From an uncultured Holophagales bacterium (lineage in GTDB: Bacteria > Acidobacteriota > Thermoanaerobaculia > Multivoradales > UBA5704): a stretch of 64,000 nucleotides of DNA. The stretch is taken from positions 544,001 to 608,000 of the forward strand of contig CAWJGT010000003.1 of the NCBI GenBank assembly GCA_963842525.1, in the 5' to 3' direction. The notes beneath the pieces are model-generated. The model did no database searches, was not told where the DNA came from, and saw nothing but the letters and a program-made list of their open reading frames with translations. Below, piece by piece: positions 11,683 through 64,000 of the stretch (position 1 is its first letter; each line of letters begins with the position of its first letter). Position numbers and translations under genes: made by a program.

Positions 11683-14600
11683 TCAGGCGTTCCGCGGCGG
11701 TGGTGGCAGGAAGCCGGTGTGGACGAAGAAGTCGAAGTAGACGGTGAGCAGATCGATATCGAGCTGCGGGCAGGTGATGCCGGAGCCCGCAATGGCCGCC
11801 CGGGTGTTGCGGTCGTCGAAGAGGACGACCTTCATCATGCCGGTACGTTGCTCGGCATTCGCTATCTCATTGAAGGCCTGATAGTTCGCCACGACGGGCG
11901 CGAATGGCGCCAGGGCGTTCTCGGAGCCCTCAGCGCCCTCGGCACCGCTGCGGATGACGTCGAGCATGTGTTGCACCCACTCCGCCAGCTCCATCCACTC
12001 GATCGGATAGCCGTATTCTTGCAGGTGCTCGAAGATATTCCGCAGGGTCGGCGGCTCGGGATGCGGGAACTGATACACGCGGTCCAGGTTTTCGTCCCGC
12101 AGGGAGATGTGGACGAGGGAGCGGGCGACGTAGTCCACCGGGGTGACGTCCGCGATCGAGTCGTCGTCCGGCGCCACGCCCACCTGGATGGAGCCCTTGA
12201 TGACGTTCCACACCATGTCGCGGGTGTTGCCGACGCCGGTCCGGCTGTGGCCGGCCAGCACTCCAGGACGGTAGATGGAGACCGGGATTCCGCGGGTACG
12301 GGCGAGCTGGCAGATGTGCTCGGAGACCCACTTGGTCTCGCCATAGCCGCCGAAGAGGCCGGACAGGCTGTCGCTCTCATCGTTCTCGTAGACCGTGGGG
12401 TCCTCCCGGAAACCGTACTCGACCTCGGGGATCGCGGTGATGCTGGAGACGTAATGCAGCGGCTTGGTGCGAATGCGGCCGGCCAGGCGCAGGGACTCGA
12501 CGGTGCCCAGCACGTTGGATGGCTTGAGGACCTTGTAGGGATAGGTGAAGTTGACCCAGGCGCCGCAATGGTAGACGGCGTCGACGCGGCCGGCGAGCGC
12601 ATCGAATTCCTCCGCAGAGAGGCCGAAGCGGGGCTCGCCCAGGTCGCCCGGCACGGCGACGAGGCGGCCGGCCATCTCCTCGGTCCACGCCTCGCGGGAC
12701 TGCAGGGAGTCGCGGAGGCGGAGGGTTGCCTGTTCCAAGGACTCGGCGCGCACCAGGCAGTGGATGCGCGCGCGGGTCTGGCGCACCAGCTCGTGGATCA
12801 GGAAGGCGCCGAAGAAGCCGGTGGCGCCGGTCAGGAACACCTCGAAAGGATCGCCGGAAGGCACGCGCGGGCCTTCGGCCCGGATCTCCGGATCGAGGGT
12901 CACCTCGGCGCGCAGGTCCACGGTCTCGCGGGCGGCAGCCAGGGCGGCGGCGCCTTCCTCGCGGAGCACCGCAATGGCCACCGCCAGCTCGCCCACGGTG
13001 GGCGCCTCGAAGAGGTCGCGCAGGGGGAAGTCGACGTCGAGCTCCCGGTGCATGCGAAGCAGGAGCTGCGGTGCCAACAGGGACTGGCCGCCGAGCGCGA
13101 AGAAGCTGTCGTGGACGCCGATGGGCGCGACGCCCAGCAGGTCCTGCCAGATCTCCACCAGGCGCTCCTCCGTCTCGTTGCGCGGCGCCGTGTAGGCGTT
13201 GCGCAGGTTGGCCGGCCGGGCGTGGCGCTCCAGGGAAGGAGCGGGAGCCGGAGGCGCGGCACCCGGCGCCTCGGCGGGCAGGGCCGCGCGGTCGATTGCC
13301 GCCCGATCGATCCGTTCCACCCAGTACCGTTTGCGCTCGAAGGGATAGGTCGGGAGCCACACTCTGTTGCGCCGCTCGTGCGCCGCGAAGCCTGCCCAGT
13401 CGATGGGAAGGCCGGCCAGCCAGAGGCGGGCGAGGCCGCCGAGGAGGAAGGTGGTGTCGGCCTGGCTCCGGTCGTAGGAGGGACGCAACGCAGGCAAGGC
13501 GACCGGGGCGGCGGCGCCGGCGAGCTGCAGGACGAGGGAGGTCAGAGCCAGCCCCGGCCCGACCTCGACGAGGACGCGGGAGGGTTCGACGAGCAGCTCG
13601 GCGATCGCGGCGCCGAAGCGAACGGGCTCGACGAGGTGCCGCACCCAGAAGTCGGGGTCCGTCGCCTGCTCGGGCGTGATCCAGGTGCCGGTGACGTTGG
13701 ACAGGTAGGGGATGGTGGGTGGCGCCAGGCGCATGCCGCGCAGCAGGGCGCCCAGGTCGTCGCGCAGCGGCTCCATCATCCGCGAATGGAAGGCGTGGGT
13801 GGTGGGCAGGCGTTTGGTGGCGACGCCGCGCGCTGCGAGGCCGGCGGCCAGGGCGTCGATGTCTTCCGGCGGGCCAGCCAGCACCGAGAAGGACGGACCA
13901 TTGACGGCGGCGAGAGAGAGGGGGCCGGTGGCGAGCTGCCGCGCCTCCTCCTCGGGCAGGGAGACCGAGAGCATGGTTCCCGCCGGGAGCTCGGCGATCC
14001 CGCGTGCGCGCCGCGCCACCAGACGCAGGGCATCCTCGAAGGAGAAGACGCCGGCCAGGCAGGCCGCCACGTACTCGCCGAGGCTGTAGCCGGCCAGGGC
14101 CTGCGGCCTGATCCCCCACTGCTCCAAGACCTTGGCCAGGGCATACTCGACGGCGAAGACCGCCGGCTGGGCGATCTCGGTGCAGTGGAGCGCCGGGGTC
14201 TCGGAGGGAGCTGCGGAAGAGGAGGGACGGCCGAGCAGGGCGCGCAGGTCCGCCTCGCCGCAGCCTGCGGCCTCCGCTTCGGGGCCGGTGCCTTGGGGGT
14301 AGAGCGCCGCCAGGAGGTCGATCCCCTGCTCGCGCAGCAGCTCGGCCGCCTGATCGAGGGCGGCGCGGAAGGCGGGCTCGTGCCGGTAAAGGCCGAGGCC
14401 CATGCCGGGGTAGTGGTCGCCGAGGCCCGGGAGGAGGAAAGTGATGGGCCGCTCGGCGTTCTCCTCGACGCTGCCCAGGAGGCGCCGCGGATCGCGGGCA
14501 TGCAGGGCGGAGATAGCGTCCTCGCGGTCGCGGCAGACCAGGGCCCGCCGGTGCGCGAAGGTGCGGCGGCCGGCCTGCAAGGTATGGACGACGTCCGCCA

Positions 14601-64000: not shown

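Follow-up and report, generated by a model that had tools for sequence, protein, structure and literature searches.

Can a nonribosomal assembly line set several cysteines into one chain and leave all of their thiols open? The question is raised by a 64,000-nucleotide stretch of the genome of an uncultured Holophagales bacterium (contig CAWJGT010000003.1; G000:C3:544001-608000 in our numbering, where G000 is the genome and C3 the contig), hereafter the window. The assembly comprises 9.95 Mb in 34 contigs with 67-68% G+C. From position 64000 down to a stop codon at 11683, the minus strand of the window carries a single line of nonribosomal peptide synthetase (NRPS) and polyketide synthase (PKS) modules, in which 14 adenylation (A) domains are followed by ketosynthase (KS), acyltransferase (AT), acyl carrier protein (ACP) and reductase (R) domains; all features of this line given below lie on that strand. 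At a probability of roughly 0.6, we read it as a fatty-acyl-primed NRPS-PKS line that would place five uncyclised Cys residues, form dehydroalanine (Dha) at one Ser-Cys junction and release its product reductively.

A motif scan of the window found 14 A domains, 14 condensation (C) domains with an HHxxxD[GA] motif, one epimerisation (E) domain and the carrier (T) domains, all in module order. Pfam recognised Condensation, AMP-binding, AMP-binding_C and PP-binding domains only in the NRPS part, and ketoacyl-synt, Acyl_transf_1, a fourth PP-binding and NAD_binding_4 domains at the end of the line. NAD_binding_4 was found with an E-value of 1.2e-65 and contains both TGATGFFG (TGxxGxxG) and YGETK (YxxxK), the features of a terminal R domain, and the Pfam search found no thioesterase (TE) at the line's end, which thus reads KS-AT-ACP-R. 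The line begins outside the window, where a FAAL-type domain lies at window-equivalent ~81.8-82.3 kb and five further modules stand upstream, and as a whole it has about 20 modules. Specificity codes (Stachelhaus 9-mers) were read by hand and then with a hidden Markov model (HMM) derived from the A domains of the line itself; residue names other than Cys follow code tables. The order within the window is an upstream X followed by Cys type II, Gln, Cys type II, a Pro-like residue, Gly, Asn, Cys type II, Ser, Cys type I, X, Thr (with E), Thr, Thr, a basic residue and KS/AT/ACP/R.

None of the domains that partner the Cys-type A domains is a heterocyclisation (Cy) domain. The four in the window read HHIAGDG (63038), HHIVSDG (56760), HHIVSDG (42709) and HHAILDG (36273), and the upstream fifth reads HHIVSDG; in no case is HHxxxDG replaced by the DxxxxDxxS of Cy domains. 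They belong to step 6 (C-A-T, 60322..63545, A3 motif at 61622, with several frame changes), step 8 (C-A-T, 54160..57180, A3 55356, T 54208), step 12 (C-A-T, 40050..43153, A3 41269, T 40102) and step 14 (C 35301..36801, with WHHAILDGWSN and the C3 motif at 36273; A-T 33630..35300, A3 34869, T 33678), and to step 4 upstream, whose Cys-type A domain is frame-broken. The C domain of step 12 best matches LCL structures, namely Txo2 (358 bits), Txo1, a DhbF-like protein and TycC. Pfam and motif scans of every piece of the line detected no DxxxxD Cy motif, no nitroreductase-type oxidase and no methyltransferase. Because the partners are HHxxxDG C domains and no oxidase is present, neither thiazoline nor thiazole is expected, and in the absence of a Cy domain the thiols should stay open on the assembly line. 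An earlier reading of the window from its letters alone (the sequence-only reading) had proposed this module order, with four Cys-type A domains behind HHxxxDG C domains and no Cy or oxidase domain; the codes read by hand and by HMM match its order, and the motif and Pfam scans bear out the rest.

Whether these A domains load Cys was judged from their pockets and their relatives. The five fall into two types, both of which carry SGDW and GGATE instead of GGE and NxYGPTE: type I has the code DLFNFSLVW and occurs once in the window (step 14), and type II has DLFDFSLVW and occurs three times in the window (steps 6, 8 and 12). In printed alignments the Cys-loading domains of PchE and BmdB have the codes DLFNLSLIW and DLYNLSLIW, and type II differs from the former only at positions 278 (Asp/Asn), 299 (Phe/Leu) and 330 (Val/Ile). 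Compared with solved structures, the type I pocket segment matches BmdB best (Cys, 129 bits), then FmoA3 and PchE, and the type II segment matches PchE best (Cys, 119 bits), then BmdB and FmoA3, with LgrA far below these three. LgrA came up as the best match of the whole type I A domain and was discarded, as its score was summed over its two A domains and did not reflect a match to a Gly domain. The type I code also occurs after a DxxxxD domain and before a KS in records of Streptomyces sp., S. rishiriensis and Micromonospora marina, and the domain upstream of it in S. rishiriensis matches only Cy structures (HMWP2/Irp2, FmoA3, EpoB, PchE and BmdB). It is quite likely that type I loads Cys, and likely that type II does so as well. 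A search of the searchable literature for the exact A-domain codes (six 10-mers) gave no match.

The Cys of step 14 appears to be added by an unusual C domain. That domain has McyA (172 bits) and AmbE (126 bits) as its best matches, ahead of all other solved C domains; McyA and AmbE are described as members of the dehydrating CmodAA clade in the sections consulted of PMC10880069 and PMC11342130. It keeps the DG and the AAH histidine, and the carrier ahead of it shares LGGDSI with the one preceding the E domain, whereas every other carrier of the line reads GGHSL. The donor module, step 13 (C-A-T, 36870..39940; C HHIITDG 39514, A3 38094, T 36921), has the code DVWHVSLVD, which we take to be Ser. 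The same combination of a Ser/Thr donor, a McyA-C2-like C domain and a Cys acceptor recurs as a cassette, of which we counted 12 instances: two in G000, six in the relative G004 (two of these at contig ends, so that they may be one locus), one in G002, two in Thermoanaerobaculia metagenome-assembled genomes (MAGs) and one in a Bacillota MAG. Donor codes are Ser in 6/12, Thr in 3/12 and Asn/Asp-like in 3/12, the Asn/Asp-coded modules being those of L074 and L077 (Thermoanaerobaculia MAGs) and of G004:C181 (L045); the acceptor is of the Cys clade in 11/12 and Ser in 1/12. On balance, we favour conversion of Ser to Dha coupled to Cys addition at step 14. A separate observation concerns contig C34 of G000, where a large NRPS with a Ser - McyA-C2-like C - Cys cassette lies ~15 kb from an SbnA-family gene. 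The Ser/Dha call of the sequence-only reading is upheld by the McyA-C2-like C domain and the Ser-coded donor; its Cys assignment gains from the pocket matches, from an orthologue with Asn278 (below) and from the same code behind Cy domains, loading itself being predicted from sequence.

The chain predicted from these modules would be acyl-D-Leu-X-Ala-Cys-X-Cys-Gln-Cys-(Pro-like)-Gly-Asn-Cys-Ser-Cys-X-D-Thr-Thr-Thr-(basic)-C2 ketide, with the Cys pattern C-x-C-x-C-(3)-C-x-C when the upstream part is included. Of the five Cys-clade modules, four would be joined by ordinary LCL-type C domains and one by the McyA-C2-like C domain, which probably dehydrates the preceding Ser to Dha while adding Cys. 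The terminal reductase would then release the chain as an aldehyde or alcohol, with open thiols free for later disulfides, thioethers or metal sites. As a long shot, a thiol might add to the adjacent dehydroamino acid and give a lanthionine- or thiazepanone-type thioether without an enzyme of ribosomally made peptides with post-translational modifications (RiPPs), the other four Cys pairing into two disulfides or building a thiolate metal site; such a product would be a knotted nonribosomal peptide of lanthipeptide-like character that bears a lipid, or else a thiol metallophore. Literature searches on NRPS products of Acidobacteria and Thermoanaerobaculia and on nonribosomal lanthionine found nothing on such a cluster, and the consulted part of the review PMC10880069 mentions lanthionine only for RiPPs.

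A number of observations speak against this reading and have to be weighed with the explanations that they invite. To begin with the A domains, type II shares five of nine code positions with the canonical Cys code DLYNLSLIW and six of nine with that of PchE. A pattern scan of G000 returned 16 Cys-clade A domains and one unrelated match; Asp278 is never found behind a Cy domain there (six of seven follow HH-type C domains and the seventh follows an unresolved stretch), and position 278 behind DxxxxDxxS domains is Asn in five of six cases and Ser in one. Type II domains form a separate clade, since they are 63-88% identical to one another and ~50% identical to the Cy-linked Cys domains of the genome. 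The four type II domains of the line might load another small polar residue, such as 2,3-diaminopropionate, if the N278D exchange favours a beta-amino group; Cys would then enter only at step 14, which would leave a peptide not rich in Cys. The genome does hold an SbnA-family (2,3-diaminopropionate) gene above the curated cut-off (G000:C34:369617-370531, minus strand), but it adjoins a different NRPS without any D278 domain, and the pyridoxal-phosphate (PLP) enzyme next to the present cluster scores as a Ser/Thr dehydratase type rather than as SbnA or CysK. Moreover, the solved pockets closest to type II are those of Cys domains, and classical Ser, Thr, Gly and Ala codes serve elsewhere in the same line. 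Asn and Asp also change places at position 278: the orthologous module in the relative G001 (G001:C71) shows 89% identity over 160 residues and reads exactly DLFNFSLVW, with Asn278; paralogous modules on C18 and C19 share 86% identity and their module context, one with Asp and the other with Asn; and cassette acceptors in different genomes have N, S or D, the Bacillota MAG having D278. Asp278 is therefore probably not a new specificity marker, and a residue other than Cys at the type II modules is unlikely. The dehydration proposed for step 14 meets objections of its own. CmodAA domains have a [K/R]SVLLAAH helix, with K/R in 50/50 domains and His in 48/50, and one Arg or more where C6 begins, according to the sections consulted of PMC11342130. 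The step 14 domain reads QALFLAAH, with Q in place of K/R and the His kept (Q recurs in two of its three close homologues, the third and most distant having R), and it has HE(I/V) before C6 where AmbE and McyA have RR, in a part where the alignment is loose. Its membership of the clade is thus partial, the nearest relatives and the donor agreeing and the basic sites not. The Asn/Asp-coded donors in 3/12 cassettes would not be dehydratable without prior hydroxylation.

The continuity of the line from Cys to Cys is a further point at issue. A true gene boundary lies at 46246/46249 in the form T-C | C*-A, a junction at which one product might end and another begin. One protein ends in a complete C domain (46246..47700; HHIAGDG 47262, a charged C-terminal tail and a stop codon at 46246-46248). 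A C-like domain (44900..46249) of full-length fold opens the following protein; it has QPSLAADG instead of the His pair and a best PDB score of 108 bits (Txo2), against 358 for a normal C domain of the line; step 11 (A-T, 43260..44899; A3 44488, T 43309) follows with DLTKVGEVG, taken to be Asn. Both the T-C | C*-A spacing and the gene break are retained in G001:C71. The terminal C domain might then release or pass on an acyl-decapeptide with Cys-X-Cys-Gln-Cys, and a separate chain would run from Asn to the reductase. Yet the second gene overlaps the stop codon of the first, in the manner of a coupled operon; the junction shows no further device for loading or release, and the terminal C domain, which retains HHIAGDG, resembles the line's internal LCL domains in its N-terminal half. 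Both features would fit condensation in trans onto the Asn loaded at step 11. Such condensation in trans is the most likely role of the terminal C domain, and two products are unlikely, if the strongest of the alternatives. The CxC-(Pro-Gly-Asn turn)-CxC core put forward earlier keeps its module order, but it spans this junction, which makes a single collinear product uncertain. The sequence as given also holds ~15 frame breaks: ~14 within the 10.1 kb between 63,545 and ~53,400, 11 of which are +1 shifts, and one in the remaining 41.7 kb, at ~39,195, caused by one surplus T within 'gag ctc tcc'; they go on, in large number, upstream of the window. Were the breaks real, the cluster would be a decaying pseudogene without a product, and a neighbouring cluster is likewise broken near window position 5000. 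This we hold to be very unlikely. No in-frame decay of motifs was seen, and the uneven spread of the breaks (~14 in 53400-63545 against one in 11683-53400) points to a locally poor stretch of assembly. In G001, a short-read assembly of ~81-86% DNA identity, the orthologous head is one open reading frame (ORF) of at least 4092 aa and the middle part has ORFs of 5756 and 3470 aa. Short-read contigs from soil and rhizosphere, compared with 53001-63000, have exactly one base fewer at 53410, 54258, 59564 and 60466, each of them a mapped junction, although these contigs measure only 69-239 bases, are 93-99% alike and could stem from relatives; public sequencing runs contain only 5-7% of sampled words. 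The frame breaks are probably insertions of the assembly. Two points remain on the opposing side. G001:C71 (L062-L064) passes from Asn-Cys directly to the Lys-like module, without the six modules Ser-Cys-X-Thr-Thr-Thr that occupy 19500-39940 of the window. Uncyclised multi-Cys peptides are, in addition, already known: thiocoraline is given as D-Cys-Gly-NMe-Cys-N,S-diMe-Cys in Table 2 of PMC4052310. With this and BE-22179 as precedents in the consulted part of that source, the rarity first claimed for uncyclised Cys in nonribosomal peptides softens to an uncommon feature.

A single lipidated chain with five open Cys thus stays our preferred reading, and the relatives indicate which of its parts may be shared. 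The orthologue in G001 retains Cys-Gln-Cys and Asn-Cys, and we regard the second CxC as a lineage-specific block because the Ser-Cys-X-Thr-Thr-Thr modules are missing there; the six-module difference between the two species corresponds to the insertion or deletion of a module block. At E <= 1e-150, type II A domains were detected in 19 of the 41 genomes sampled, G000 among them, with 18 of 24 from its family and none of 16 from the other families of the order. The nearest named relatives are Acidobacteriota and Thermoanaerobaculia MAGs, with 63-64% identity. The genome itself is exceptionally rich in NRPS genes, with 277 full A-domain cores in 9.95 Mb by an A-core HMM.

The remaining modules complete the line. 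Upstream of the window, the FAAL domain, which would introduce a fatty acyl group, is followed by step 1 (DAWFLGHVV and then E, presumably D-Leu), step 2 (DIFHFGLIL, residue X), step 3 (DLFNNALTY, presumably Ala) and step 4 as described. Step 5 reaches into the window with its C-terminal A subdomain and T domain (63560..64000, LGGHSL at 63626); the body of its A domain lies outside and its code is broken, and its orthologue in G001:C334 reads DPRHFVYRA. Step 7 (C-A-T, 57300..60320; C HHIVGDG 59902, T 57348) has DAWQFGLID, which we take as Gln. The code of step 9 (C-A-T, 51000..54040; C HHIAGDG 53620, A3 52212, T 51051), DVYITTHV-, is assumed to be a Pro-type backbone with an altered pocket, and its one-residue gap is also found in DVQFIAHV- codes elsewhere in G000. 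Step 10 (C-A-T, 47830..50870; C HHIASDG 50454, T 47880) has DILQLGLVW, presumably Gly. Beyond the Cys of step 14, step 15 (C-A-T, 30430..33510; C HHIVSDA 33075, T 30477) has DIEFSGSVV, given as X. Three modules then share DFWNIGMVH, which we assign to Thr: step 16 (C-A-T-E, 25900..30310; A3 28512, T LGGDSI 27309, E HHLVVDGVS 26739), presumably D-Thr because of its E domain, and steps 17 (C HHLLLDG 25260, A3 23901, T 22683) and 18 (C HHIAGDA 22095, A3 20715, T 19545), both within 19500..25899. Step 19 (C-A-T, 16300..19499; C HHIIADG 18951, A3 17562, T 16356) has DTEDIGTIV, presumably a code for a basic, Lys-like residue. The PKS and release part (11683..16299) consists of a KS at ~14889-16017, an AT at ~13416-14442 (GYSLG, HAFH), an ACP with LGGQSL at 13095 and, by motifs and Pfam, the reductase at ~12120-12834, before the stop codon.

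Among the neighbouring genes, two lie divergent from the FAAL head. One, a PALP gene of the Ser/Thr dehydratase-like type, was set aside as a source of Cys or 2,3-diaminopropionate on the scores given above. The other, outside the window (G000:C3:626358-627656, plus strand), encodes a VKOR-thioredoxin/DsbA fusion that is the sole VKOR of G000. Its homologues in relatives are adjacent to an NRPS at one of six places, G001:C6, which has the orthologous cluster. Because it is the only copy in the genome and its adjacency is limited to G001, we interpret the fusion as a general disulfide system and rejected it as a dedicated enzyme of the cluster. A look at ~20 kb upstream revealed neither a FAD-dependent thiol oxidase nor a methyltransferase, and no regulator for metals. 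Of the two kinds of gene that the sequence-only reading had proposed to look for, a disulfide oxidoreductase is thus present nearby, though apparently a housekeeping one, and a metal regulator was not found in those ~20 kb. At the other end of the line, a second, convergent PKS-NRPS tail on the plus strand (1-8886) has the order T-KS-AT-T-C...A-T-TE and is fused to DUF6625; its C domain stops after ~170 profile positions near 5000, which indicates a frame break or deletion. Between the two convergent lines, a MacB_PCD/FtsX-type permease of 866 aa (8697-11297, plus strand) might export the product of either.

Should all five A domains load Cys, the line would make a lipidated nonribosomal peptide of unusual length, with CxCxC...CxC thiols and a probable Dha between two Cys, a chemistry normally tied to ribosomal peptides. 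Two findings would refine the rules by which genome mining predicts substrates and domains: a Cys-type A clade with F299/V330 and Asn or Asp at 278 that serves non-cyclising modules, and the cassette of a McyA-C2-like C domain and a Cys acceptor, which several MAGs of Acidobacteriota and a single one of Bacillota contain. The cluster is at the same time one of many orphan NRPS clusters of uncultured bacteria, read from an error-prone assembly.

The line shares parts with several known systems. With the Cy-A(Cys) modules of the PchE, BmdB and HMWP2 type it has in common the A-domain clade and nearly identical pocket codes; it differs in that the partner is an HHxxxDG C domain and that no oxidase is present. 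Peptides released by a reductase in the manner of lugdunin resemble it in combining uncyclised Cys with an aldehyde-giving terminal reductase. Here, in contrast, the N-terminus would be acylated and the last unit a ketide, so a thiazolidine closure like that of lugdunin is not expected. To the CmodAA domains McyA-C2 and AmbE the step 14 domain is linked by its best solved matches, its Ser donor, the conserved DG and AAH His and the GGDSI-type carrier upstream; it departs from them in Q for K/R, in HE for the Arg pair, in the Cys-clade acceptor of 11/12 cassettes and in the Asn/Asp donors of 3/12. The closest parallel to several open Cys is offered by the bisintercalators thiocoraline, BE-22179 and the triostin-echinomycin group (TioR/TioS, Ecm6/Ecm7), whose lines, as described in the consulted part of the literature, also bring in several Cys through C-A-T modules without heterocyclisation. 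BE-22179 has Cys beside dehydro-Ala, and the disulfide of thiocoraline forms without a dedicated enzyme of its cluster, according to the part of PMC4052310 consulted. Those lines, compared by description and not through the TioR/TioS sequences, make four-residue, chromophore-primed chains with a dimerising TE and N- and S-methylation, whereas the present one has a FAAL start, ~20 modules, a PKS module, a predicted reductive release and no methyltransferase, and neither an aromatic chromophore starter nor a dimerising TE was found in it. As read from its domains, what is new in this line relative to thiocoraline and BE-22179 is its size, its lipid start, its PKS-reductase end and its cassette of a McyA-C2-like C domain and a Cys acceptor.

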